Positions 4,248 to 63,376 of a stretch of 64,000 nt of DNA are shown one piece after another (the first letter of the stretch is position 1; each line of letters begins with the position of its first letter). Both the position numbers and the translations under genes were made by a program. The DNA lies in the IMG/VR virus record IMGVR_UViG_3300031853_000008, positions 1 through 64,000 of that record; one strand, 5' to 3'. The DNA comes from a virus. Taxonomy: Duplodnaviria > Heunggongvirae > Uroviricota > Caudoviricetes. A model generated the notes under the pieces. It saw only the letters and a list, made by a program, of their open reading frames with translations, had not been told where the DNA came from and did no database searches.

Positions 4248-4338
4248 TAGGGATGCCCGGACTCGAACCGGGATCACACCTATCTTCAGACGACTAGTAG
4301 TGTTTCACGTCCATCTCTACCTGTTGAGCTACATCCCC
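4248..4338 (-). tRNA. tRNA-like gene, 91 nt; canonical acceptor stem (GGGGATG/CATCCCT), D arm and T arm (CCCGG-TTCGAGT-CCGGG), but the anticodon stem GGACG/CGTCT encloses a 15-nt loop; isotype undetermined
   Basis: Folded by hand from the reverse complement. Length is in the type II range. The loop contains CTACTAG. Confidence 0.4.
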
Positions 4339-17366: not shown

Positions 17367-17886
17367 TTTTATAGTTCTCAGATCCTATGAATCCGCAACA
17401 TCTCATTTCCGGGCAAAATCCTCTGTATTCACATTCCGGCACCATACAATCGGCAAGTTCAGGCTCGACCGTGCGGACAGCCTCTACAACCGCCCTCCAA
17501 GCCCCTCTCGTCTCGTTTGCGGCCTGACTGCATAACCTCTTCCTGCTTATATTAATAAGCGCCTGTGCGTTCGCTAGGAGTGTCAGACAGACGCTTGCGT
17601 TCTGTGGGAGGTTATTTCTATCTATTCCAGTTCTATCGGTTCTCTCTGTTGAGACGTATGGAGTCACCCCGATGTGGTGGCGCACTAGATGCATTGCCAC
17701 CCAGTAAGGAATATCATGGATTCTTATCGTCAACTCGATATACCTTATAGGAGAATGCTCTGCTCTAAGTATCTTACTCTTCCATGTAGAGGAAGGATAC
17801 TTTCCTGTTTCCTTCCCCACGGTATTCATGGCGGCGTTTTTCACTTCCTGCCAATGGTCTTGATAGTTCAAAATCTCTACGTTCAT
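17320..17886 (-). CDS. thyX: flavin-dependent thymidylate synthase ThyX-like (short)
   Basis: AEHSPIRYIELTIRI ... RHHIGVTPYVSTER resembles the ThyX signature. Confidence 0.5.
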   Translation of the reverse strand: MNVEILNYQDHWQEVKNAAMNTVGKETGKYPSSTWKSKILRAEHSPIRYIELTIRIHDIPYWVAMHLVRHHIGVTPYVSTERTDRTGIDRNNLPQNASVCLTLLANAQALINISRKRLCSQAANETRGAWRAVVEAVRTVEPELADCMVPECEYRGFCPEMRCCGFIGSENYKNETEDYRNGFKNRET

Positions 17887-19922
17887 GCCGTCTTATCCTT
17901 CCTTAAGTCCGACTTGTAAAGATACTGATAATCCAGTATCCAGAGTTCATTAGTGTGTGGAATCGGCACCCAATTACCATTTTCATTGGCTCTTCTCTTC
18001 GGTTTATTCATATAGTTCCCAAGTTTTATCACATCTCCTTCAACAAGAGAATGATTAATAAATTCCTTCTTTGGGACTTTGAATGAATAATACCCAGAGT
18101 TTTTCAGAGAATATGCACTTATGATAGGCGTTGATTTTTTATCATCAACATCTCCGATAACACAAACTCCTGCCGCTTCCGGGTCCGTAACTGTTACGCT
18201 GTGCAGGATCTGCTGCTGATACGATGCCTTGTGAATCGCATCGAAATCCGTCACTTTTATCTTTTCAAGACCAGTTAGCATCCCTAACATATCCATCATC
18301 ATGTATGTGGCGGGAGTTTCTTTACCACAATACTTCTTAATTATATTTTCCCCGACCAGAAGATTTTTTACGCTACTTTTCTTTATTTGTTTTTTGAAGC
18401 GCTTATTTGCGTTATCATAAAGTTGCTCAAATGCTTTCAGTATTCCTAAAAGCTTCCTCGATGTACCGAACTCTGAAAAATAATCAATCTTAACAAGCTG
18501 CTCGATTGTTTTAAGCCCGATCCCAGTATTACTCTTGATAAATAAAATTAACGATGTAAATGTATCCCCATCAAAATCCTTTATCTTATACAATTCATCA
18601 GCTACTGTTTTCCCAAGTCCTTTGATTGCTGACAGGCTGGGGTTGATACAATGTGATTCTTTATCAATCGTAAACTGCCTGTTATCAAGCCGGAACTTAT
18701 AAGCACCTTCGTTTATCCCAAATGCCTTTTTCATTTCTGTCTTAAAGGCTACTACTTTATCTTTATCCCCTTTATCGGTGTACATCTGAAGCATAGTACA
18801 ATAAAACTCATACGGATAATGAGCTTTTGTATAGGCCCCATACACAGAATCATACGCATATGATACAGAGTGTGAGGCGTTAAACGAATACCTTGCGGAG
18901 GCTTCTACAATCGCCCAGGTCTTTTCGAATCCTCTCATAGATCCGACTTGTTTCATCCAACCTTCTGCTAATTTGGACTTAAGCTCTTCAAGTGCCTCTA
19001 GGGTGAATTTCTTTTTCGAAATCTTTTTAATAATGGCATAGGTTTCAGTTTGTGGAATGCCAAGCCATCCAAGATAACCCATTATTGACTCTTGATAAAT
19101 CATAAATTTCATAGAATCTTGTAATAAGTTATCTAATTCTTTTACCCCAGTTGTGTAATATTTTCTCTGAAGAAAAGTACTTAGCTGAGTTTTAAAGCCA
19201 GGGCGGAGTGCAGCGACAAAGGCACTCATCTCTCGCATATTCTTTGGTTTATACTCCATACAGGAATTTCTGCCAAAATCCGACTCACATTGATTAACGC
19301 CGCATGTGTAGCCTTTAGCGTAGATGTCCCAAGTTGCTTGATCACTCTCAACTAGTTCGTTCATCTCGTTAATAGAAGGTGTTGGAATTCCAACTTTCTT
19401 GAATATTTCATTAATGGCTAGCCACACATCAACCTTAAGTAAATCGTTCTTAAGATACTTGTATTTTTCGGCAACCATTCCATCTACAACGGTTGTTAAT
19501 ACATAATTTCCGTCACTGGTGGAACATCTAATAAGACCAATTTCGCTTTTAATATCACCGCCATAAATAAGATATCCACACGGGGCCTGTGACTTCGCGT
19601 TGATAATCTTCTGGTATTTTTTAGATTCGTCCAACATCTTATGATATTGTGGAGAAACATAATCATAGACGCTGATTGAATCCTTATCATCCGCACTAGC
19701 ATGTTTTAATGCTTTTTCATACTTAGCAAGCTGTTTTGTTACATTATTCGATGTTTCAAAATCAAGCCCCTGAGACTTCGCATACAACTTAAAGGCTGAT
19801 GATGCCTGTAACGGTTTATATGAAATCATCGGGTATGAATGCCCAGGAGTTCCATAAGCTTCTGTTAAGATATCATCCTGCGCTTTCGCAAATGGCTCAA
19901 CTGTCCCAAGGTTCATATCAAT
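17883..19922 (-). CDS. dnaE: DNA polymerase III alpha (DnaE-like), exon 2 (palm, fingers and C-terminal region)
   Basis: FNASHSVSYAYDSVYGAYTKAHYP matches the DnaE fingers motif. Begins IDMN.., completing the PDxDxD catalytic motif with exon 1. Confidence 0.7.
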   Translation of the reverse strand: MDMNLGTVEPFAKAQDDILTEAYGTPGHSYPMISYKPLQASSAFKLYAKSQGLDFETSNNVTKQLAKYEKALKHASADDKDSISVYDYVSPQYHKMLDESKKYQKIINAKSQAPCGYLIYGGDIKSEIGLIRCSTSDGNYVLTTVVDGMVAEKYKYLKNDLLKVDVWLAINEIFKKVGIPTPSINEMNELVESDQATWDIYAKGYTCGVNQCESDFGRNSCMEYKPKNMREMSAFVAALRPGFKTQLSTFLQRKYYTTGVKELDNLLQDSMKFMIYQESIMGYLGWLGIPQTETYAIIKKISKKKFTLEALEELKSKLAEGWMKQVGSMRGFEKTWAIVEASARYSFNASHSVSYAYDSVYGAYTKAHYPYEFYCTMLQMYTDKGDKDKVVAFKTEMKKAFGINEGAYKFRLDNRQFTIDKESHCINPSLSAIKGLGKTVADELYKIKDFDGDTFTSLILFIKSNTGIGLKTIEQLVKIDYFSEFGTSRKLLGILKAFEQLYDNANKRFKKQIKKSSVKNLLVGENIIKKYCGKETPATYMMMDMLGMLTGLEKIKVTDFDAIHKASYQQQILHSVTVTDPEAAGVCVIGDVDDKKSTPIISAYSLKNSGYYSFKVPKKEFINHSLVEGDVIKLGNYMNKPKRRANENGNWVPIPHTNELWILDYQYLYKSDLRKDKTA

Positions 19923-20187
19923 CCTTGCTACCCTCGGTTTCCCGATATTTATTAGGGGAGTAGACTATACCATTATCTCAATGAGATACCCATTGGTAGT
20001 CGTTGCAAGCTTTCCATTTAAGGACTATCTCTCAGGATTATCAAATCCTCAATCTTGTTACCATACTGTGGTGATTAGCCACACCGCGCTTCAGTTTCCT
20101 TTGCGTTTGGTAATTGAGGCTCTAATGACTTCCCCTGATATTCTGGGTTATTCAATACGGATCGCTCCGTAAGGCGACTATAAGTTA
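19923..20187 (-). other. group I intron (265 nt, no ORF) in dnaE
   Basis: Begins with TAA directly after exon 1 ...SLPD (last nt U) and ends in G. Contains GACTAC / P8 hairpin / TATAGTCTAC (P7-like). Removal restores SLPD-IDMN. Confidence 0.5.
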
Positions 20188-21498
20188 ATCGGGCAATGAT
20201 CTTGTTTTTAATATACGAACTTCGCTAAGAAAACGATCTGGGTAGAGTTTTACAGGAGATGTAAAACGGTCAACACTAGAAAATCCTAACAAAGAATTAA
20301 TGTAATACGATACCGCACTTCCTCTTCCTGTCTTCGTAATAACCCCGCCGTATTCTTTGCCGCGCTTAACCAACTCATAATCCAATAAGAAATAATCTGA
20401 CATATGAGTATTTATTACAGCGTTTAACTCATACTGAATGCCATCCTCGTATTCCTTCCATCTTGATGGATCAACGTGCTGCTTTTCTTTATCCCATGCA
20501 TCATAAATAATCGACTTTAACTTATTATCTTTCCATTCCTGTGACTTCCCTGGATACAGAGTTGGCAGCTTGATATCTTTCCCAAATGTGATATCATCAA
20601 AAGTTAAGATGATATCCGATGCATCAAGCATTTCATCTATCTCAGCTTCATTAAAAACACCCTGTTCGATTAATCTCTGCTTCGCCGTCTCTCGGTCGGG
20701 GTAATCCATGTACCACCCGACTTCATCCTCGTCATAAGTAAATCCGCGCCCCTCAAGATAATTATCTCTCTCAACGCTATCGGATTCATATATGTAGTGG
20801 CTGTCTAATCCGACAATCCATTTAATTCCATACTTATAATGTAACTCTTTTATGTGTTTATTAATATCTTTCTGTCTGTCTGTATTATGGCACTGGGTTT
20901 CCAAATAGAAACTGTCCCCAAAGTGTTTCCACAGCTTCATCGTAATATCATCAATGTCTTCGTACTGCCAGTACTTCACACAGGCCGTGGTTACCATCAC
21001 ATCTTCCGGCTTCAGTTGCTCTAACAACTCAAGATCAACTCTTGCCTGTCCGTAATATCCAGTGATATTTGCTTCGGAGAGGATACTATTTATCTCTCGC
21101 CGCCCCTGTTCATTCCGGGCCAGTAAGATAATGTGGCAGTTCGCCCTGTCTTTGCGGTACTTGGTTTCCGTGTTCCCCTTCTTATCGGTAACAGTATAAG
21201 GATATTCCTTTTGTCTGTCTTTTACCCAATAAGCTTCTGCTCCAAATACAAATTTTTGTTTTTGTTTATTATATTGTTCTTCCGTAATGTCGCCAATATC
21301 TAATCGAGCCTTAAGCTTTTGATTGAAATCGACGACGCTGTCATAATAAACATAATAGTTTGATTGAAAACCATGCTCTACAGTGCTAACTACTTGGCTT
21401 CCGACCTCAACATTTCTCTGGATGTACTTTTCAGGGGCAGTAGCGCAATCAATTACACAGCAGTTAGAAAACCAACTGTGTTTATGATAATTCTGCAT
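20188..21498 (-). CDS. dnaE: DNA polymerase III alpha (DnaE-like), exon 1 (PHP domain and first palm segment)
   Basis: HKHSWFSNCCVID..VEHG PHP motifs and GRGSAVSYYINS palm segment. Start 21498 with GGAGG RBS. Confidence 0.65.
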
Positions 21499-22261
21499 CC
21501 TCGTCCTCCATCTCTTTGTATAGGCAATCATTTCTAAAAGAACACAACCTATTACACCATAGGAACGATTTCTTAGCGGCAAATTCCTGGTCATTCTCGA
21601 TAAGATTTATTGTTTCAAGCACCCAGTTTTTGGTTTCTTCGCATTCATCTTCTCTATAGGGGATCTCTGTAATTGCTCCCTTATCAAGAAAATGATTCCA
21701 CGCAAGAGATTGTGCAGAAATACCGAATTTCTGTTTGACCCCCATAGCGTAAATGTAAAGTTGCTTTTTGTAATCGTTAAACTGATCAAGTTTACTCTTC
21801 AGCGGGGTGCCGTCTTTCTTTAGAAAATGACCACTACTCTTATGATCCACTATAATAGTCTCACCATTATTTTTATCCTCGATAATTAAATCAACACGCC
21901 CAATTATTTCATTTCCGTTCAGTTCAAACTCAACTGGGATCTCCGTCCCTAAAACTTTAAAATTTGCAAAAAACTTATCGATATCAAGAGTATCCAGGTA
22001 ATCGATAAATTGATCCTGTTTCGCAAGTACTTTTTCGATATCCGTATCTTCCGGGACTTCGGCTAAGAGATTATCAAGAGTATTCTGTTTTGCTTGCTCT
22101 ATTGTTTCTTTCCCAGAAAAAAGCATCTATAATTCATTATGGCAAAAGCTCCCGACAGCAGCCTGAAAGTTCTTTTCCTCGTACTGTTGTTCAACCTTAT
22201 GTAAATAATAGGCATATGGGCATTGTCTGTATTGGCTTAAACTACTGAAAGAATACTGCAT
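21482..22261 (-). CDS. PD-(D/E)XK Cas4/RecB-like exonuclease with in-frame TAG at 22127..22129
   Basis: N-terminus MQYSFSSLSQYRQCPYAY (44 aa, strong AAGGAGG RBS), then TAG followed immediately by ATG, then the D..EDK nuclease core and C-terminal CxxCxxxxxC. The N- and C-terminal Cys form the expected 4-Cys cluster only if TAG is read through. Confidence 0.55.
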
Positions 22262-22283
22262 CTATACCACCTCCTTGTTTTGT

Positions 22284-22312
22284 ATTATACTATATTAATA
22301 TATTCCTGTCAA
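22284..22312 (-). promoter_or_regulatory. sigma70-type promoter TTGACA-N17-TATAAT
   Basis: Exact consensus hexamers on the minus strand, upstream of the Cas4-like gene. Confidence 0.45.
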
Positions 22313-26043: not shown

Positions 26044-26061
26044 GAGATTCTCCTTATATAG

Positions 26062-26133
26062 TCACCCGGTGGGGATTCGAACCCCAGTCTTGAGGGTTAG
26101 GGCCTCTCGTCTTGACCACTCGACTACCGGGCG
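26062..26133 (-). tRNA. amber suppressor tRNA, anticodon CUA (reads UAG); charged amino acid unknown
   Basis: 72-nt cloverleaf: acceptor CGCCCGG/CCGGGTG, U8A9, D arm GTCG..GAC, T arm TGGGG-TTCGAAT-CCCCA, discriminator A. Anticodon arm GAGG/CCTC with loop CCCTAAC puts CTA at positions 34-36. Position 33 is C rather than U. Confidence 0.6.
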
Positions 26134-26750: not shown

Positions 26751-28274
26751 TTACACAATATCCTTTACGGCATCTTCTATTGGCTTATATCTATCTGTAT
26801 TCAACTCATTAAGAAGAGCTTCATACGGATCAATCTTTGCCGTCATAAACATCTTCAGCAGATTCACAGAGAACCCAGAACAGAGAACCATGCCGAGATC
26901 ATTCTCCTGCATCGGAATCGTCTTATCCATGTTAAGCGACAGATTCCAGAAAACAATCTTTGGCAGCTTATAGCCATGACTCTGATATTCGTCGCTGATT
27001 TCTTCGAATAGAGTCTTGTTATATCCAAAACTTGTCCAATGGCTTCTTCCATCCCACTGCATATCACTGCAAATCACAATCATCTTCGGCATATCGTCCT
27101 GCGTCATATGATTCTCGATTGCGGTGTTCAGAATCAGTTTCATTGTCTTATAGATGTCTGTATTGGAACATTCATCTTCTGCATAAGTCTTAGCAACTTT
27201 ATCTGCCAGGGTCTTACAATTGCGGAGATCGATAAACTTCGGATTGGCGGAAAATGTAATGAATCTCCCCCGCCAAGCCTTAGAGTTATGATCCGCCATG
27301 TAAATAGCGAGTGCTGTGGCAACATCAATAGGCCTGTAGCTTCCACAGTTAGATTCCATTGACCCGCTACCATCTCTGACGACAAGAGCATCGGAGAGCA
27401 TAATATTCTTCTGGCTCTTCCATAATTCTTCCAGTACTGGATCTTCTTTCACATTATCGCGCTCCCAGTAACAACGACCACCAATATACTGCTTGACAAT
27501 CTCATGCGGCTGAAGAGCCTTTGCGTTAATCTTTGTATCGCCTTTAACAAGAGAGTCAATATATTCCTGTCTTCTTGCTTGATCGTGACGTGCGAACGCA
27601 TCTTTGTAATTGAGATTTGCCTTGGACGGAACCTTTGCGTAATCAATATCGCTCCAGTTCCCGCAAGACATCTTCTGCTCCACTACATCAAGGTACGTTC
27701 TCAGCCCTGTAAGAAGTTTTCTGTACTGGCGGGGCTGAATCCCCCACTCATCCATCGTCTTTCTCGCAAGTCTTCTTGTGTTCTTTGACGAAGTGTTTTC
27801 TGATGGAAGCCATTTGCTCAAAAGGGATACAGACTTTCCTTCTTTTGCATTTCTCACATCTTCAAGAGCCTGGTTGAGCATGAGCCTTGCCGTATCTTTC
27901 CAGACTGGAGTATTCTCTAGTGTATAAAGGCTATCCCATCTGTTATATTCTGAGACGAACTTAATCAGCTTTTTCACAACGTCTGGCTTCTGATCCGCCA
28001 GCCACGCAAGACAAGCCCGGAAGACTTTACGCTCTCCCACCCCCTCACGGATATCTCCAACATAGAAGAGATACTTTACCGCAATAAGTGGGTTCTCGAA
28101 ATAAACCTTTGCAAATTCATCCTTGATATCACTCTCGTCCATACTCCTCATAGAAGAAAGCGCGAAGTTGAAATCAAGAAGGTTCTTTCCTGATGTTTTG
28201 TATGCAACGGCACCGTTCGTGGTAAGCGTTTTCTCGTTGTTAAGTTCTTTCTTCATTCCATCATAAAAATTCAT
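26751..28274 (-). CDS. rsr: Ro60/Rsr-like ribonucleoprotein (TROVE + von Willebrand A domains)
   Basis: N-terminal TTNGAVAYKTSGKNLLDFNF TROVE-like region. vWA MIDAS VVRDGSGSM. Start MNFYDG with AAAGGA RBS. Confidence 0.6.
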   Translation of the reverse strand: MNFYDGMKKELNNEKTLTTNGAVAYKTSGKNLLDFNFALSSMRSMDESDIKDEFAKVYFENPLIAVKYLFYVGDIREGVGERKVFRACLAWLADQKPDVVKKLIKFVSEYNRWDSLYTLENTPVWKDTARLMLNQALEDVRNAKEGKSVSLLSKWLPSENTSSKNTRRLARKTMDEWGIQPRQYRKLLTGLRTYLDVVEQKMSCGNWSDIDYAKVPSKANLNYKDAFARHDQARRQEYIDSLVKGDTKINAKALQPHEIVKQYIGGRCYWERDNVKEDPVLEELWKSQKNIMLSDALVVRDGSGSMESNCGSYRPIDVATALAIYMADHNSKAWRGRFITFSANPKFIDLRNCKTLADKVAKTYAEDECSNTDIYKTMKLILNTAIENHMTQDDMPKMIVICSDMQWDGRSHWTSFGYNKTLFEEISDEYQSHGYKLPKIVFWNLSLNMDKTIPMQENDLGMVLCSGFSVNLLKMFMTAKIDPYEALLNELNTDRYKPIEDAVKDIV

Positions 28275-28297
28275 AATCAGTATCCTTTCATTGTAAG

Positions 28298-28410
28298 GAG
28301 GGCAGTGTGGGTTCGAACCACAAACATCGCCTTTCAAGAGGAAAATGTTTTGCTGTTAGCACCTATACAAGATGCGTATTTTCGTGCTCTACCATTGAGC
28401 TACTGCCCTC
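28298..28410 (-). ncRNA. Y-RNA-like tRNA mimic
   Basis: Perfect acceptor stem with G-1 (gAGGGCAG/CTGCCCT), U8A9, D arm GCTC-AATGGTA-GAGC, T arm TGTGG-TTCGAAC-CCACA. In place of an anticodon arm there is about 63 nt of extra helices. Lies 23 nt upstream of rsr. Confidence 0.5.
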
Positions 28411-51496: not shown

Positions 51497-53158
51497 ATGT
51501 TGTGTAATTCTTTATTTCTTACGTTTCTGAAGAACAATGGACTTAAAAATTATAAGGATATTTCTACCAGGGACGTGATATGTATTGATTTCGGGTTTGG
51601 GACGAGATCGTACGATGAAGAGTACTCTCATATCAAAAAAATGCTTCAAAGTGCCGAAGAATCTGGGAATGATGAAAAAATCACAAAAATGAAGGATTTA
51701 TTGGCAAAAACAATCAAAAATAAGTCGAAATTTAAGAAAATTTCGAAAGAAAACCTTAGAATTTTGATGTATGAAAACGGCATTGATGTGACCTATAAGG
51801 GGTTTGGGGATGACTCAGATGAAAAGATTCACTATAAGATGTTGGAGAGAAATGCTTCCCATGCCAAAGTTGGGACTGTAATCTTCATCAATTCTGAACT
51901 TTATGATAAAGCCTATAACTGGTTAAGTATGGGAATCAAGTTGCCGAAGAAAAAGGCTAAAATCGTTGAGATGTCGGCATATATGCCATTGACAACTTCG
52001 ACGATAGTCGGCACCGTTCACATTCCTGTACAGGATATTTTAATCTTAAAGGATTATGATTCGTTCTATAAAACAGTTGCGGATGTGATTAAACCTAAAA
52101 AAGGCGATAACGGCAAGATGATGTGCTACGTGTCAAGAGAGGATACGGAAGTAAAGAATACTCTGTGGGACGGGATGGCACTTATTGAGTCCTCGATTCT
52201 GCCCGGATACTGTAATGGAATGGCGTTGCTGAGAAACCATTTTTTCAAGGCTTGTGCGTTTAAGACTAATATCCAGCTGTTCTTCCATGATTACTGCGAC
52301 AAACACGGAATTGACTATGAAACTTATCAGATTACCGATATGTTTGGATACAGGCATTATTTAAAAGATATCAAAATGATAACGACAGATAATGCTATTA
52401 AGTGGAAGAAATTTATCTCTCTTATGGGGAACAGCCCTACTGAGGCGTATGGCTACTGGTGCGAAAAAGTTAGAGCGGATGGGGAAGAATGGGGAATCGT
52501 AAAGACAGACCACCCAAGCAAACTTAGTTATATAGGGAACTATAACAGAATGAGTTACCAGATGCTCAATACTCTCCCGACCACTTATGAAGATGTAGGC
52601 AAAATAGCTTCTACAAGCATTAAATATGTAGAAGATATGAAAAACAACAATGATATTTACGAGAAGTTTCTGCGAGAGAATGCCACGGCAGTCAATCATT
52701 ATGAGATGTTGGCTGACCTATACAAACAGAATAAAGAGTTCGCAAGAAGCGTTATGTGGAAACGAGACAAAGCGGATATCATCCGGCATTATGTCAACAA
52801 TCTTCGCAAAGGGAAGATATTCGTTAGAGGCGATAATCTGACGCTTTGTGGAAATCCATATGCTCTACTGCTTTACAGCATGGGGGAAGCTCCTGAGAAT
52901 GACAAAACGCTGTTACATGAGGATGGAACTATACAGTGTTACACGAAACAGTTTGAAGATGGTGAGTATTTGTGTGCTTTTAGATCCCCACAGAATTCAG
53001 CAAACAATATAGCATATTTTCATAACCACTACTCTCCCGAAATGGAGAAGTATTTTGATTTTAGTAAAAATATAATTGCTGTTAATTGTATTGGGACTGA
53101 TATTCAGCCTCGGATGAACGGCTCAACAATCGGGGCCAGTTGTGCGGAAACGCACTTC
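51497..53158 (+). CDS. large protein of unknown function, exon 1 (554 aa)
   Basis: ORF ends at TAA, the first codon of a group I intron (the same arrangement as in dnaE). Confidence 0.5.
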
Positions 53159-53436
53159 TAAAAATATTCGGTGAAAATTGGAAAGCTGACAATGCCAGCC
53201 AATCAATTACCAAGCCAGTGAATATCAGAAAGTAGCTGGAAGGTTTAGAGACTAGGGGTTGAGGAGATACCCAATAACACCCCCACGAGTGCCGAATACC
53301 TTAACACATAATGGTGAAGGTAATGAGATAGTCCGATACTCTTAGGAAACTGAGAGCTGCCGTGGATAAAGAGCCACGGACATAACAATATGGCGATTTT
53401 GACAGCGATTTTGTTTTTGCAACTAACCAACAAGAA
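53159..53436 (+). other. group I intron A (3' boundary approximate)
   Basis: R element GGTTTAGAGACTA at 53243-53255, S element GAGATAGTCCGA at 53325-53336, P9-like hairpin CCGTGG..CCACGG. Confidence 0.55.
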
Positions 53437-53700
53437 ATGGTAAAGGGTTCAAAGATTGCATATAGAGATTTCCCAACGGTAGTGAATGCTATCCCTGAAA
53501 GTGGGTTGACATATGACAATACTCCAGATTCGTATGCACTTATGGATAATCGCTTTGCCAAGAGCCAACGTGCGATAGGGGAATCATCGAATTTGGCGAT
53601 GTTGGCAGTAACATATTATTTAACAAACATTGCGAATAATATAAACAATGAACAAACCAAACAATTGTATGATATTTCAGTAATTCTAGCAGTATTGGCT
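53437..53700 (+). CDS. large protein of unknown function, exon 2 (about 88 aa; 5' boundary lies between 53386 and 53440)
   Basis: ORF bracketed by two group I introns. Ends at TAA, which begins intron B. Confidence 0.4.
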
Positions 53701-54061
53701 TAATTAACTGGGCCGGTCGCATAGAAATATGCCCCATAAAATATCCTGTGAATTTCTGGAAAGCTAAGAGTAAATGACTATGAATAAAGAACCTATGAAG
53801 ATGCCATTAGTAAACCGATATGAAAAATATAAATTGTAGTTATTTACTTATGCTAATCAGAAGCCAAGCCACTAAATCCTGTAGAAGTAAGTGGAAGGTT
53901 CAGAGACTAATCGGTGAGAAGGGGATCAATATCCGAACACGAGTGCAGGACACCTAAAAGATATTCTCAAGGTGATGATATAGTCCGATCTATAGGGAAA
54001 CCTATTGAAGCAACAGATAAATAGCTGTTGATGTAACGACAAGCAGTGCAGCATAGATAGT
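53701..54061 (+). other. group I intron B (3' boundary approximate)
   Basis: Q-like AATCCTGTAG, exact R element GGTTCAGAGACTAA at 53898-53910, S element GATATAGTCCGA at 53976-53988. Confidence 0.55.
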
Positions 54062-54730
54062 GTGAAAAGGGTCTATTCTGTAGATACTATGGACGAGATT
54101 GCAAGAATCAAGTCTCTTCCATGTATGGCTAGAACTACTGTAATTGATGGTAAGGAAGAACGCAGTGATTTTCCACTCTTCTTTCGATACACAAGAGATG
54201 TGCCTGTAACGAAGAATGGGAAAGAACTTCCATATGAAGACATCAAAACTGGTCGGCAAAAAGTTACGAATCGTATTAATGAAGACCTTGTTTGCCCGAT
54301 GAATTATCTTGAATCGTGGCTTGATAAAATTCAAGGCGCTTCCAAGACAAAAGATATACCAAATGAGAAGTTTCTGCGGAAAATTCCAGCCAATAGGAGA
54401 AATTCCGATTCTAAAAAGGTTGGTGAAATCCGAAAGATGATAGAGACATACGCATATTATCTTTATGATCACAGAGAACTTTTCAGTACATCTGAGGGAT
54501 TCGAAAAAGTTGTGGAGAAAACGGACGAACTTACAAATGCGATTAGAGGAATGAAGATTAATCTCGCAACCACACATAGACTTATACAGATTGCATTTGG
54601 AATCAATATAAATGATGATTCAAGGGATGTAACTGTAAAGTCTAATAAAATAGGGCGGAAAATCCTTATTATCCTTTATCATAGTAATCCAAAAGCTTTC
54701 TTAAGTTGCTTTGTAAAGGGTGAATGCTGA
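54062..54730 (+). CDS. large protein of unknown function, exon 3 (about 222 aa; 5' boundary lies between 54032 and 54090)
   Basis: Open frame continues from within the intron's 3' end. Confidence 0.4.
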   Translation: MKRVYSVDTMDEIARIKSLPCMARTTVIDGKEERSDFPLFFRYTRDVPVTKNGKELPYEDIKTGRQKVTNRINEDLVCPMNYLESWLDKIQGASKTKDIPNEKFLRKIPANRRNSDSKKVGEIRKMIETYAYYLYDHRELFSTSEGFEKVVEKTDELTNAIRGMKINLATTHRLIQIAFGININDDSRDVTVKSNKIGRKILIILYHSNPKAFLSCFVKGEC

Positions 54731-58878: not shown

Positions 58879-58974
58879 AAGACCCGAACAGCAAATTTAC
58901 AGGATAAATTATGATGACATTGAACGGATATGAACTTGGTTCGTCCCCGTTCTTTCCCTTTTTTGGGTCTTGCG
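58879..58974 (+). promoter_or_regulatory. conserved leader element copy L1 upstream of the late operon
   Basis: TTAAGACCCGAACAGCAAA ... TTTTTTGGGTCTTGCG. The termini match L2 and L3 and are mutually complementary. Confidence 0.4.
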
Positions 58975-58997
58975 CCATGATTAAGGAGGGAAGCTAT

Positions 58998-60052
58998 ATG
59001 GCTTTTTTGAAAAAAGTCCTGCCATAGCAGGAAATGAAAAGGCTTACCCTCAAGCCCCTAAGAGAACAATATACTGCTTTGGGGTAGGCTTATAACAAAA
59101 TTATGAATTATGAACTTCCTTATTGTGTCAAATGTGGGACATTTGGAAGTGCTACTCTCTTCTATCAAGATAGCAGATTTGCGAATGGGTATTTCCCTAT
59201 TTGCAAAAAATGTATTATGAAAATGGTATAGAACAGATAGAAGGATGATGATGAACCACACGAAACGAAGGAATCCGTTGCTAAAGTATTGAAAATGATG
59301 GATCTTCCGTTCTTGGAAGACCTTTATGATTCTTGTGTAAAGGCTATTGAGGACGGAACTGAAAAGCGAGGGTCTAAATCTTCGTTTATTAATTATGTGT
59401 CCGCTATCCGTTCTCTCCCACAGTATCATCGTTTAACGTGGAAAGATTCTGATTATATTTCCCAAGAGAAGGAAATTGAGAACGACGCTGATAATGAGGA
59501 TATTCTTGAAAAAGCGAGAGAACATTTTGGAACAACTTATACTAATCAAGATTTGAAATTCCTTTAGACTCAATATGAAGACTGGACTGCCAGATATGCC
59601 TGTGAAAGTAAAGCACAGTAGATTTTGTTCCAGAGGGTATGCTTTATCCAATTAGCACTGGACAAGGCTCAAAAATCTGGGAAAGAAACGAAAGATCTTG
59701 ATAAACAGCTTCAGGATGTGTTGACATCGCTTCAGATTAAACCTAATCAGAGTAACTCTAATGCTCTTACGGAAGCAAAGACGTTTAGCCAGCTTATTGA
59801 GAAGTGGGAAGCTTAGAAACCTCTCCCTGAAATATAGGATGATTTTAAGGATGTTGATCATGTTGGGAGATATATTGATGTGTTCTTTAAAGGACATCTA
59901 TCCAAAATGATGGGGCTTAAGAATGCGTTTTCTTCTATGTATGATAAATTCATGAAAAAATATACTGTTAAGAAGCCGGAATATGATGAGGATACCGACT
60001 CTGAAGAATTGTTTGATAAAATATTTGGCAATCCTGTGGAGAATAGGTCATG
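58998..60052 (+). CDS. late protein with N-terminal zinc ribbon (candidate small terminase subunit); 8 in-frame TAG codons
   Basis: ATG with TTAAGGAGGG RBS. A single frame runs 58998 to 60052. Every interruption is TAG and the final stop is TGA. Confidence 0.45.
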
Positions 60053-60115
60053 AGTGACGCTAAGAAATCTGTTAAATAGATAGAGAAAACCAAATAGCGT
60101 AAAATAATGTAGACG

Positions 60116-61813
60116 GTGGCTTGGAGAGCAAGCTACTATCGTGAAAATCCTCATCGATTCGTTTCTGAAGTATTATTCCCAGATGGAACTTTTAAGTTGA
60201 AATTGTTTCAAAAGATTCTTCTTTGGGCAATGATGCACTACAACTTTATTATGTACTTGGCGGCGCGCGGCCAGGGGAAAACGATGATAACTGCGTTGTT
60301 TTGTGTCGTGAGATGTATCTTATATCCGGGGACAAAGATAATTGTAGTAAGCGGTACGTTGAAACAAGCGAATGAATTGCTGTTAAAGATACAAGATGAA
60401 TTTATGCCGAAATCACCATTCCTATGTAATGAAATATAGTCTTGTAAAATTGGGCAGAATGACGCATCAATTTATTTTCGAGGAAATTCATGGATTAAAA
60501 CTCGCACAAGCACTTAGAACTCTCGTTCCGCAAGAGCAAATATTCTTATAGCGGATGAGTTTCGCATGATAGATTAGAAGATATTGAACACAGTTCTTCG
60601 AAAGTTTCTGACAAGCCCTCGTGAACCTGGATATTTGAATAACCCAGAATATACTCATTTAAAGGAACGCAATAAGGAAATTTATATGAGTTCTGCGTGG
60701 TTTAAGTCATCTTGGGCATATGAAAAGGCTATTGGATATACTAAGAATTTTTTCGATGATACAAAGAAATATTTTATCTGCGGGCTTCCATATCAGTTAT
60801 CTATTATGGAGGGCTTGCTTATGAAAGAACAAGTGCAGGATGAGATGAGCTAGCCGGATTGGAATGATTTATTGCAGTCGATGTAGATGGAATGCACCTG
60901 GATAGGTGATGTTGGAGATAATTTATTTCATTTTGATGATTTCAATAATAGACGGGTATTGAAGAGTTCTTTTCTTCCATTGAAATATTATAATGATAAT
61001 AGAAAAGTGCCATAGCCTCATTCAAAAGGGAAAAGGGTATTATCTCTTGATGTAGCTTTAATGAAATCATCAAAGTCTAAAAAAAATGATGCCTCAGCAT
61101 TATTCATTAACGATCTTACACCATCTACTAATACGAGTTATCATTCAAATATCGTTTATGCTGATACATTCGAGGGGTTAACAACTGACTAGCTTGGCTT
61201 AATTGTGATGAGATATTTTTATAAATATAAATGTACTGATTTAGTTATAGATACCAACGGTATCGGTTTAGGTGTCTATGACTTTTTATGTCGTGATCAA
61301 TATGACCCATCGACTGGGGAAACCTATCAAGCTATGACTTGTGCTAATGATCCAGATATGGCTGAGAGATGTCGTGTATAGGGGGCTAACAAGGTTATTT
61401 GGAGTGTAAAAGCAACCGCTTCATTTAACAATGATATTACTATTTTGCTCCGTAATGCTATATTAAATGGACGGATTAGCTTTCTTATATCTTAGGATGA
61501 TGCGGATGAGCCACTCAAAGATAAGCTTAAAGGATATGCAAAGCTGACCCCAACGGAACAAGCATTGTTAAAGAAACCTTACGCTCAGACAACTATGACA
61601 GAGTATGAACTCATAAAACTCAACCACTAGGTAAAGAATGGCAATATTAAAGTTTATTAGAGTTCTGGAATGCGCAAGGATCGCTACAGTTCATTATCGT
61701 ATAATTATTGGTGTGCGACTCAGCTTGAACTTAAGCTACGACCTAAAGAGTCACACGACAAACTTATCAGTTACTTTCCGATAAGGAAAGCAAGAGTTTA
61801 TAAATCATTTTAA
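60116..61813 (+). CDS. terL: terminase large subunit; 11 in-frame TAG codons
   Basis: GTG start. Walker A AARGQGKT, Walker B ILIADEF, nuclease-domain motif VIDTNGIGLGVYD, C-terminal KDRYSSL. One frame throughout, with interrupting stops only TAG (60437, 60515, 60575, 60851, 60884, 61013, 61184, 61379, 61493, 61628, 61658). Terminates at TAA. Confidence 0.75.
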
Positions 61814-61825
61814 GGAGGTGCATGA

Positions 61826-63376
61826 ATGCCACAAAATAGTGATAAGGTGTCAACTGCACCTACTAAGAAACAGCCTACTTCTGCGGAACTTCGCAAATGG
61901 TATGCGAATTATTCAAAGAAACAATAGAATTTTGATTCTATGAAAAATGCTTTGAAACGGCTTACTGATATTACGAAAAGTAGAAAAGAAAGAACTATTA
62001 ATACATTCTCAAAAGAGGATCTCAGAACTTATCTGAGAAATATAAGTTCCAGTGAAAAGCAGTTAAGAAATCTTTCGAGATATCTGTACTACCGTTCTCA
62101 TAGTTATTATAGAATCATTAACTATTATGCCAATATGTTTGACCTAAAAGCAAGGTCGGTTATTCCTACATATGATTTCACAAAAAATAAACAGGATGCG
62201 AAGAAGGTCACAAAACAGTTCTATACGACTTTGACTTATCTAGATCAAATGAACCTTCAGTATGAGTTCCTTAAAATATATCTCACTTGTTATAGGTAGG
62301 ATGTATTCTATGGTTGCCTGTACTGGGATGATACCGACTTCTTTATTCTCCCGTTGGACCCGGATTTTTGTAAAATTTCTGGCGTTTATGGGACAGGAGA
62401 CTTTTCATTCGCTTTCGACTTCTCCTATTTCAGAAATAGACAGGACGTTCTCGAATACTGGGGTGAGCCATTCCAATCTATGTATAACACATATGAGAAT
62501 GATACCACCAACAATAGGTGGCAGGACTTCCCGGAAGAATACTCTGTTTGCTTGAAAGCAAGGGCATAGGATTGGCAGACCGTAGTGCCCCCGTTCTCAG
62601 GGCTTTTTAATGAGATTATCAATCTTGAGGATCTGAAAGATATTCAGGCGGTGGCAGATGAGTCGCAGATTTACAAGCTTCTCTGGTTCGAACTTAAAAC
62701 CATCACAGGGTCGAAAGATGTTAATGATTGGGCGGTTGATCCAGACCTTGCTTTGGATTATTACGATAAACTTCAGAATGAGATTCCTGAGTGGGCTGAT
62801 GTTGCGATGGTTCCTGGGGAACTCAAGTCTATCGAGTTCAATCAAGACCAGGCGGATGATACAAACAAGGTATAGAAAGCTACTGAAAGTGTATTCAATA
62901 CTTCCGGCGGAGCGCAGATTCTTAATGCTGCTTCTATCTCTGGGACAACAGCTTTTACTGCCGCGATTGCGTCTGATACTGAATTTGCCGTTTCTCTCCT
63001 GTTGCCACAGACTTAGGCTTGGGTGAATCGTATGCTTTCGTATAAGATGAATAACCCCGCAAAGGTGAAATTCTTTGAGATAAGCATCTATACGAGAGAT
63101 AAGTTAAGAGATGCTCTTCTCAAGTCGAGTCAGTTCGGGCTTCCAAATAAACTTGCCATTAATACCCTGTTTGGATATTCCGAGAAAGATACAATGGCGA
63201 TGAATTTCCTTGAAGAGAATTGCTTGCAAGTCAGCACTAAATTTACTCCACTCCAGTCTTCCTATACAAGGAGTGCGGATGTTGACACAGATTCTATTAC
63301 AGGGGGAAGACCATCTAGCACATAGATAACAGATGACGGTGAAGCAAGCAAAGATAAGAGGGATAATGCGAAATGA
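61826..63376 (+). CDS. portal/connector-like late protein; 6 in-frame TAG codons
   Basis: AAGGAGG RBS. Four listed ORFs (61940, 62354, 62585, 63023) plus flanks are all in frame 2, joined by TAG only. Terminates at TGA. Confidence 0.5.

Follow-up and report, generated by a model that had tools for sequence, protein, structure and literature searches.

The classical group I introns of phages that infect Gram-positive bacteria are those of SPO1 and Twort. In other Gram-positive phages, Herelleviridae among them (Bacillus phage Jayan, Staphylococcus virus vB_SurM-PSU6, and Enterococcus phage EH93P1), introns also split essential and conserved genes, namely those for DNA polymerase and the large terminase subunit, and have endonuclease open reading frames (ORFs) associated with them. 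An Intron_gpI element is annotated in Clostridioides difficile phage phiCD211 (LN681537.2, 28891-29156), with copies in phiCDIF1296T and pCD1602_4. Phage introns of this kind have mostly been classed as IA2 or IA3, and a 2025 survey holds that they fit the old subgroups badly and that the Rfam and GISSD models may miss phage variants (PMC11878797). Here, we analyze a window of 64,000 nucleotides (nt), positions 1 to 64,000 of IMG/VR record IMGVR_UViG_3300031853_000008, from an uncultivated gut phage whose dnaE gene is interrupted by a 265-nt insert that, by alignment, falls between the codons of its two catalytic aspartates (PD|xD). The insert is very probably a group I intron without an ORF of its own. 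Its sequence places it, as an ORF-less member, in an apparently mobile family that Rfam recognizes poorly and that, judging by the contigs in which it occurs, is common in gut Bacillota phages, where it has repeatedly occupied this DnaE site.

The dnaE gene lies on the minus strand, as do all exon and intron features described below, and its coding sequence is read as two ORFs (20185..21594 and 17883..19916). The upstream ORF ends in ...RILKTRSLPD, written TTG CCC GAT in its last three codons with the final Asp at 20190-20188, and is closed by TAA at 20187-20185; the downstream frame is open from 19922, where ATT GAT ATG AAC begins the sequence IDMNLGTVEPF, the ORF call starting at the Met of IDMN. 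Pfam assigns a PHP domain and positions 8-99 of the DNA_pol3_alpha profile to the upstream part, and positions 120-259 of the same profile, the finger domain, and HHH_6 to the downstream part. The start of the palm thus stands in one ORF and the remaining DNA polymerase III (Pol III) alpha domains in the other, as expected of a single Pol III alpha-type polymerase gene cut in two. Exon 1 (20188..21594) holds the PHP domain and the first part of the palm and ends at SLPD, while exon 2 (17883..19922) holds the remainder of the palm, the fingers, the HhH, and the C-terminal region; comparison with the homologue in locus L001 makes the ATG at 21498 (MQNYHKH...) the likely true start of the gene.

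The insert between the exons (20187..19923) is preceded by U20188, opens with an in-frame UAA, and closes on a terminal G (G19923). An earlier sequence-only reading of the window had described DnaE as two ORFs, one ending in SLPD and TAA and the next beginning with IDMN, with 265 nt to be removed after a U and ending in a G, and it was exact to the base. Shifting both boundaries by one base in either direction violates the U/G rule, and placing the end of the intron at the adjacent G (19924) loses the dnaE reading frame. The program-made ORF list contains no ORF of 40 or more amino acids (aa) on the intron's own strand inside the insert.

Joining the exons yields a 1116-aa protein whose alignment with Pol III alpha of Thermus aquaticus (Taq; 2HPI) runs across the junction, slpdIDmn facing SMPDIDTDF. 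The Asp residues at the junction correspond, as counted on the printed alignment, to residues 463 and 465 of the Taq enzyme, which we take to be two of its catalytic aspartates, equivalent to E. coli D401 and D403. The nearest GenBank relative is MT835469.1, an unannotated human-gut phage scaffold with a continuous 1106-aa protein (...KTKSLPD|LDLNLGT..., ...KTKSLPDLDLNLGTPE...) and an uninterrupted site that reads TTACCGGAT|TTAGACTTG; it aligns with the spliced window protein gap-free, with zero residues gained or lost at the junction. Both exons are intact, and the protein they encode is ~70% identical to uninterrupted homologues. The two alignments agree with the earlier claim that the insert splits the catalytic PD|xD motif.

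The identification as a group I intron is strongly supported, mainly by comparison with a family of related sequences and less by Rfam. A sensitive blastn search of GenBank phages found 75-79% identity over ~230 nt to the phiCD211 element and to pCD1602_4, and 86-96% identity between the last ~55 nt of the intron and more than 200 Staphylococcus, Bacillus, Listeria, and Enterococcus phage sequences. We collected the family with a P7-region pattern, GCAACGACTAYCAA-N14-44-GGTATAGTCTA, which matched 60 loci in IMG/VR viral contigs and 10 in Bacillota genome contigs, the latter including Eubacterium, Lachnospiraceae, C. difficile, Peptacetobacter, and Faecalibacillus. At least 44 distinct sequences align well (MAFFT); the window intron is at most 79% identical to any other member, and a hidden Markov model built without it scores it at 225.6 bits (E = 1.8e-68) over its full length.

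The splice sites obey the same family rules. P1 (20175..20191) pairs the exon bases CGAU (20191-20188) and the intron bases UA (20187-20186) with UAGUCG (intron 8-13, 20180-20175) around a 5-nt L1 loop (ACUUA), setting U20188 opposite G10, which makes the U-G wobble of the 5' splice site. Across the family, three exon-guide combinations are seen (CGAU with GUCG; GGAU with GUCC; GGU or GGGU with GCC or GCCC), the guide changing along with the 5' exon, and the terminal G is invariant in 44/44 aligned members despite their differing 3' exons. All ORF-less members with a visible 5' exon open with an in-frame stop, which is UAA or, once, UGA.

We drew the standard group I model (15 helices, 65 pairs) on the window sequence and counted its pairs on the alignment of 44, which had not been fitted to any structure; the controls were models with the 3' partners slid by 1-3 columns and 500 shuffles. 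Standard pairs are formed in 96.0% of cells in the proposed model versus 28-41% in the slid controls, 47 of the 65 pairs change on both sides versus 16-22, and the covariation score is 0.524 versus 0.05-0.07; none of the 500 shuffles attains the observed pairing or covariation values. Compensatory changes are present in all model helices but P7. RNAalifold, run independently on the same alignment, draws P2, P4, P5, the P5 extension, P6, P6a, P8, P9, and the P9 hairpin, with 40 compensatory pairs. Every family-model helix is made of standard pairs in the window copy, which keeps all family-invariant positions and adds compensations of its own (A62-U145, where the others have C-G, and CCUC/GAGG in P5a against a consensus of CUUU/AAAG). 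Single-sequence minimum-free-energy folding recovers some hairpins only and cannot show a pseudoknot, and we did not use it as evidence. The predicted ribozyme fold, with its P3-P9 core of P4-P6 and P3-P8 domains, is thus confirmed at the level of covariation, P7 aside. The proposal of a compact, ORF-less group I intron finds its backing in this covariation over 44 homologues, in the co-variation of guide and exon, and in the invariant terminal G.

In the window copy, P2 (20156..20171, intron 17-32) is the hairpin UACGGA-GCGA-UCCGUA with a GNRA loop, its six pairs all compensatory and also found by RNAalifold. P3 pairs CCCA (20144..20147, intron 41-44) with UGGG (19989..19992, intron 196-199); by the pair counts on the alignment these four pairs are 100% paired, with CG/UA/GC/AU exchanges. 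A first P3 model with the pair A40-U200 was rejected, as that pair forms in only 20/43 sequences and RNAalifold puts U200 with A214 in P8, and P3 was cut to 4 base pairs (bp). P4 (intron 50-55 with 151-156) encloses P5 and a branched P5 extension (intron 59-148), the whole spanning 20032..20138 with 93-100% pairing, most pairs compensatory, and agreement from RNAalifold. The extension consists of P5a (CCUCAAU/AUUGAGG), UACC/GGUA, a hairpin with a GAAA loop (88-95), and a 5-bp hairpin with the loop CUAAUCA (105-121). P6 (157-159 with 179-181) and a short P6a (164-166 with 173-175) occupy 20007..20031, as drawn from the alignment and its pair counts.

The P7 strands are GACUA (19997..20001, intron 187-191), placed by the RF00028 and family alignments, and UAGUC (19963..19967, intron 221-225), preceded by AAUGGUA as J8/7. 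They agree with the RF00028 consensus AGACUA...AUAGUC and are invariant in the family, in part since the search pattern fixed them. P8 is the hairpin UAUCUC-AUU-GAGAUA (19974..19988, intron 200-214), in which alignment columns 227/249 form UA in 20 sequences, AU in 12, and CG in 12. P9 (CCC/GGG, intron 230-232 with 255-257), which spans 19931..19958 and encloses the hairpin UCGG-GAAA-CCGA (243-254), is seen in the pair counts and in a 3' module shared with other phage introns. The core motifs quoted from the sequence alone can all be placed in this fold: GACUAC is the 5' strand of P7 (187-192), the UAUCUC and GAGAUA stem is P8, and UAUAGUCUAC is the 3' strand of P7 (219-228). The intron is only 265 nt long because its P6 is short, without CCUAAG...UAUGG, and its P8 is short as well.

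Several observations weigh against a group I intron at this site. Run on the whole window at the gathering threshold, Rfam reports nothing at the dnaE insert, and two other group I introns elsewhere. The Infernal search with Intron_gpI that had been suggested as a check is therefore negative at that threshold, and only when 500 bases (19800-20300) are searched alone does RF00028 give a minus-strand match (19941-20197, model 1-253, its full length) with 28.7 bits and E = 1.9e-5, below the gathering score of 50. That alignment covers P1, P2, P3, P4, P7, and P8 in an element order that agrees with RF00028; taken alone, the match is weak evidence, and the threshold it misses is operational and not biological. 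Rfam is equally silent on the relatives, with no match in 11 loci at E <= 0.01 or in 5 short loci at E <= 1, the phiCD211 element included. Because relatives go undetected, even this one that is annotated Intron_gpI in its own record, Rfam is a poor test for the family, and its near-blindness agrees with the 2025 survey cited above. On the structural side, P1 is made of just 4 exon pairs and 2 intron pairs and P3 of 4 bp, and attempts to draw a P10 on the window intron gave nothing convincing. Covariation is silent on P7 because P7 and its flanks were partly fixed by the collection pattern. The distal P6 hairpin, CCUAAG/UAUGG in most relatives, is absent from the window copy, which might fold more poorly for it or need a protein helper.

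These structural gaps speak most directly for a group I intron whose splicing depends on a phage or host protein, or is inefficient and acts as a brake on polymerase expression. The short P1 and P3, the lack of a clear P10, and the missing P6 hairpin would suit such an element, as would the lack of an ORF, which means that no maturase is encoded. Many small bacterial and phage group I introns nevertheless splice alone in vitro, and the window copy retains three stable GNRA hairpins (GCGA in L2, GAAA in the P5 extension, and GAAA in L9) together with the full P4-P6 and P3-P8 core. The short-P6 form, moreover, is found in 12 of 44 family members (the window copy and 11 others), which argues that it works. 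We consider dependence on a protein, or splicing slow enough to restrain the polymerase, unlikely.

A gene that is truly split or broken is considerably harder to defend. The insert would then be a dead intron remnant or an unrelated spacer, and either each exon would have its own translation, with the ATG at 19916 as the start of the second, or the polymerase would be a pseudogene. With the standard code the two halves do form separate ORFs, and 5 nt before the internal ATG there is an AAGGA, so that separate translation of exon 2 is physically possible, a further point against an intron; the Rfam silence and the lost P6 hairpin could be enlisted here too. Separate translation, however, would put the two catalytic aspartates on different polypeptides, and the ATG at 19916 is merely the Met codon of IDMN, absent from most relatives' 3' exons (IDLN, VDID, and others). 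Decay, for its part, fits badly with intact exons at ~70% protein identity to uninterrupted homologues. Either version would leave unexplained a conserved ribozyme in which all family-model helices pair and the invariant positions are kept, with a short P6 common to a good number of its relatives. We judge a true split or a pseudogene very improbable.

Least of all do we credit an interruption handled in or after translation, whose probability we regard as negligible even with a CUA-anticodon tRNA and long ORFs needing TAG as sense in the window, and with a superficial resemblance to T4 gene 60 in a take-off GAU directly before the stop and another GAU just after the insert: an intein needs a continuous in-frame ORF, and here the first insert codon is UAA and no ORF connects exon 1 to exon 2; TAG recoding does not apply to a TAA stop, and the exon frames stay unjoined with TAG read as sense; a programmed frameshift is rejected on sequence grounds; bypassing that lands on the GAU after the insert would cost the protein Ile-Asp, and with it the second catalytic Asp, where splicing gives a gap-free alignment, and would have to span 265 nt, far more than the 50-nt gap of gene 60; and none of these would explain RNA covariation in 47 pairs.

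With the insert taken as a group I intron, a course of events can be proposed from well-established group I chemistry. We infer that the dnaE pre-mRNA is spliced and that this may require no protein. The gene would be transcribed as a single pre-mRNA, in which the guide GUCG would pair with the final exon bases CGAU to form P1, the U-G wobble marking the splice site. Attack after U20188 would come from a free guanosine bound in P7, and the released 5' exon would then attack after the terminal G (19923), joining ...CCC GAU to AUU GAU AUG... and restoring the catalytic motif SLPD-IDMN in a 1116-aa Pol III alpha-type polymerase. On unspliced RNA, ribosomes would halt immediately at the UAA formed by the first three intron bases, as may be expected in the ORF-less members seen to open with an in-frame stop.

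The distribution of the insertion is that of a mobile element. In IMG/VR, most of 74 related dnaE loci are continuous; in six, an insertion falls exactly at this D|I codon boundary (L073 and L074, of 297 nt; L077; and L045, L053, and L055, of ~1.2 kb each), and the rest have none there; such sporadic occupancy of one conserved site is the pattern expected of a mobile intron. The DnaE homologues of GenBank phages are uninterrupted in this region in 57 cases out of 57. Many family members sit at the PD|xD boundary of far more distant DnaE genes, with 3' exons such as VDIDISG..., IDTDIEG..., and IDLNVATQEPF..., and others lie in tape-measure genes and further genes. Related dnaE genes are also interrupted, by ~1-1.3 kb, at other conserved motifs: near GRGS at query residues 29-33 (L062, L067, and L077) and at residue 188 (L072). 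In L082, L121, and L127, family members precede the 3' exon DLFNKSHSFSYA, which reads ...FNKSHSFSYA and is, by eye, the DnaE NKSH motif. Insertions at several conserved motifs make the DnaE of related phages a multi-site intron target. Full-text literature searches turned up no description of a phage dnaE gene with a group I intron.

In the longer members, the two P1 strands flank ORFs of 240-296 aa with matches to PHROG 314 ("homing endonuclease") and NUMOD3, and for one type the match is to PHROG 4645 ("endonuclease"). The window copy, having no endonuclease gene, would be unable to home by itself. The route that we infer for its arrival in dnaE, and hold to be the most likely, is descent from relatives with a homing-endonuclease ORF in the P1 loop that targeted this highly conserved stretch of DNA. 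The intron ORF of L045 contains a motif, ...FYVGKGKNNRY..., that is GIY-YIG-like by eye; a Pfam search of this ORF gave no GIY-YIG match, and its assignment as an endonuclease draws only on PHROG 314 and on NUMOD3 in relatives. A same-family intron occupies the same dnaE site in a 116-kb Faecalibacillus sp. contig (L147, CAVAGP010000002.1). The 3' exon there, IDFNLGTIEPFAQAQREIMGEIHAYPMIAY, is similar to that of the window, IDMNLGTVEPFAKAQDDILTEAYGTPGHSYPMISY, and the contig may point to the lineage of the phage's host.

The window contains other elements of unusual coding. A tRNA with the anticodon CUA, an amber suppressor, lies at 26061-26133(-) (Rfam 56.9 bits; labeled 'Pyl' by ARAGORN). 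Three ORFs on the plus strand, 58908-60050, 60020-61810, and 61826-63373 (381, 597, and 516 aa), are open only with TAG as sense and contain 8, 15, and 6 in-frame TAGs, respectively. In the PD-(D/E)XK nuclease gene that adjoins dnaE (21485-22294(-)), 2 in-frame TAGs must be read through to match the continuous homologue in MT835469.1. The tRNA and the TAG-containing ORFs together suggest TAG (amber) recoding in this phage. At 28298-28409(-), an Rfam tRNA match of 42 bits has good acceptor, D, and T arms and a 53-nt insert in the anticodon region; ARAGORN makes no call there, the sequence overlaps the start of a 534-aa open frame (26754-28355), and either an interrupted tRNA or a tRNA-like element may be present. 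A 91-nt tRNA-like gene at 4248-4338(-) receives from ARAGORN a two-base anticodon, '(ga)', with no definite identity, and scores 37.3 bits with the Rfam tRNA model.

For annotation, the consequences are practical. Gene callers would report the dnaE of this phage as two ORFs or a pseudogene, with Rfam silent at its curated threshold, and the same would hold for dozens of related contigs; a covariance model specific to the family would mend the missed annotation. The locus adds a phage Pol III alpha of the DnaE type, at the boundary between catalytic-Asp codons, to the essential conserved sites targeted by group I introns and homing endonucleases. It also lends weight to the view that the diversity of phage group I introns exceeds what the IA2 label and current models imply (PMC11878797). 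The concept of how group I introns work is unchanged: the replicative polymerases of phages are a familiar place for introns, and this one is an ordinary kind of phage element that holds no conceptual surprise.

Set against described systems, the intron is compact and its size is unremarkable. The suggestion that it would be among the smallest group I introns known fails within the window itself, where a 243-nt intron at 53114-53356 passes the Rfam gathering threshold, and within the family, whose cores measure 249-264 nt from guide sequence to terminal G. Natural group I introns include those of Azoarcus tRNA-Ile (~205 nt) and Anabaena tRNA-Leu (249 nt). Literature searches for a citable "smallest group I intron" found nothing usable, and the size comparison rests on the 243-nt intron of the window and these well-known natural examples.

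That 243-nt intron and a second one, of 317 nt at 53691-54007(+), offer the nearest comparison in space: they belong to the same genome, split a protein-coding gene, and are of similar size. The gene in question, 51497..54730(+), is divided by these two IA-like introns into ORFs 51497-53161, 53437-53703, and 54062-54730; for the first of these, Pfam gives no match and PHROG gives phrog_8308 (unknown function, E = 3e-74). Unlike the dnaE intron, both score above the Rfam gathering threshold (76.2 and 90.8 bits) and, as Rfam aligns them, hold an additional 28-32 nt between P7 and the P3 3' strand, consistent with P7.1/P7.2; the profile of the dnaE-intron family detects neither. IA-type phage introns carry P7.1/P7.2 between P7 and the P3 3' strand. 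In the dnaE-intron family, J7/3 is 4 nt long (CCAA) in 44/44 members and there is no P7.1/P7.2, which speaks against placing the family in subgroup IA.

The phiCD211 element belongs to the same family. It shares with the window intron the same helices, the GNRA-capped P2, the P5 extension, the P7/P8 core, and the P9 GAAA hairpin, and it starts with UAA and ends with G. It differs in position, lying upstream of and overlapping the start of an annotated tail tape measure coding sequence and not in dnaE, in its guide (GCC with exon GGU, as against GUCG with CGAU), and in a longer P6 with CCUAAG/UAUGG. Its 'Intron_gpI' misc_RNA annotation (1454-1719 in our locus L002) starts ~10 nt early and ends ~19 nt early relative to the limits implied by the family (1464-1738), and the annotated tape measure coding sequence starts inside or at the end of the intron.

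The Herelleviridae-type introns resemble the window intron in the last 55-70 nt only (the P7 3' strand, P9, the GAAA hairpin, and the tail), at 86-96% identity over ~55 nt, whereas the 5' three quarters cannot be aligned. This ~55-nt 3' module, AUAGUCUA-UCCCCUAAUAAAUAUCGGGAAACCGAGGGUA (window 19925-19985), is near-identical in the Jayan DNA polymerase (L148), vB_SurM-PSU6 terminase (L149), and EH93P1 terminase (L150) introns. Near-identity at one end of otherwise unalignable introns suggests modular exchange or a strong constraint on the P9 end.

The inteins and split inteins of bacterial DnaE, such as that of Synechocystis (PMC2677866, PMC4760082), are likewise selfish elements in a replicative polymerase gene whose removal is needed for active enzyme. 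They are removed at the protein level, from a continuous ORF or as two intein halves, whereas the window insert is non-coding and opens with a stop.

A more distant parallel concerns the fold. In Tetrahymena-type (IC1) introns, the GAAA loop of P5abc docks on an 11-nt receptor in P6. Members of the dnaE-intron family have a branched P5 extension with a GAAA-capped hairpin and, in most cases, CCUAAG...UAUGG in P6, presumably the canonical 11-nt GAAA receptor known from the P5abc-P6 contact of Tetrahymena; most members thus carry both parts. There is no detectable sequence relationship between the two, and the window copy is without the receptor hairpin. By this analogy, the family may possess the same kind of clamp between peripheral elements as Tetrahymena.

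Taken together, these comparisons allow a broader proposal, which we offer tentatively and with somewhat more doubt than confidence: the family may be a structurally distinct, uncatalogued class of phage group I introns to which Rfam is nearly blind. Such a class would combine the lack of P7.1/P7.2, a branched GAAA-bearing P5 extension, mostly a P6 receptor, endonuclease ORFs in the P1 loop, and a Herelleviridae-like 3' module. It would have colonized Pol III alpha at PD|xD repeatedly, in two or more DnaE lineages of gut Bacillota phages, deeply diverged from each other, along with tape-measure genes and a gene for a product with a CPNCG motif. Were this so, many "split" or "pseudogene" calls for dnaE in gut phage catalogues would be annotation errors, and the subgroups into which phage introns are sorted would need to be extended.

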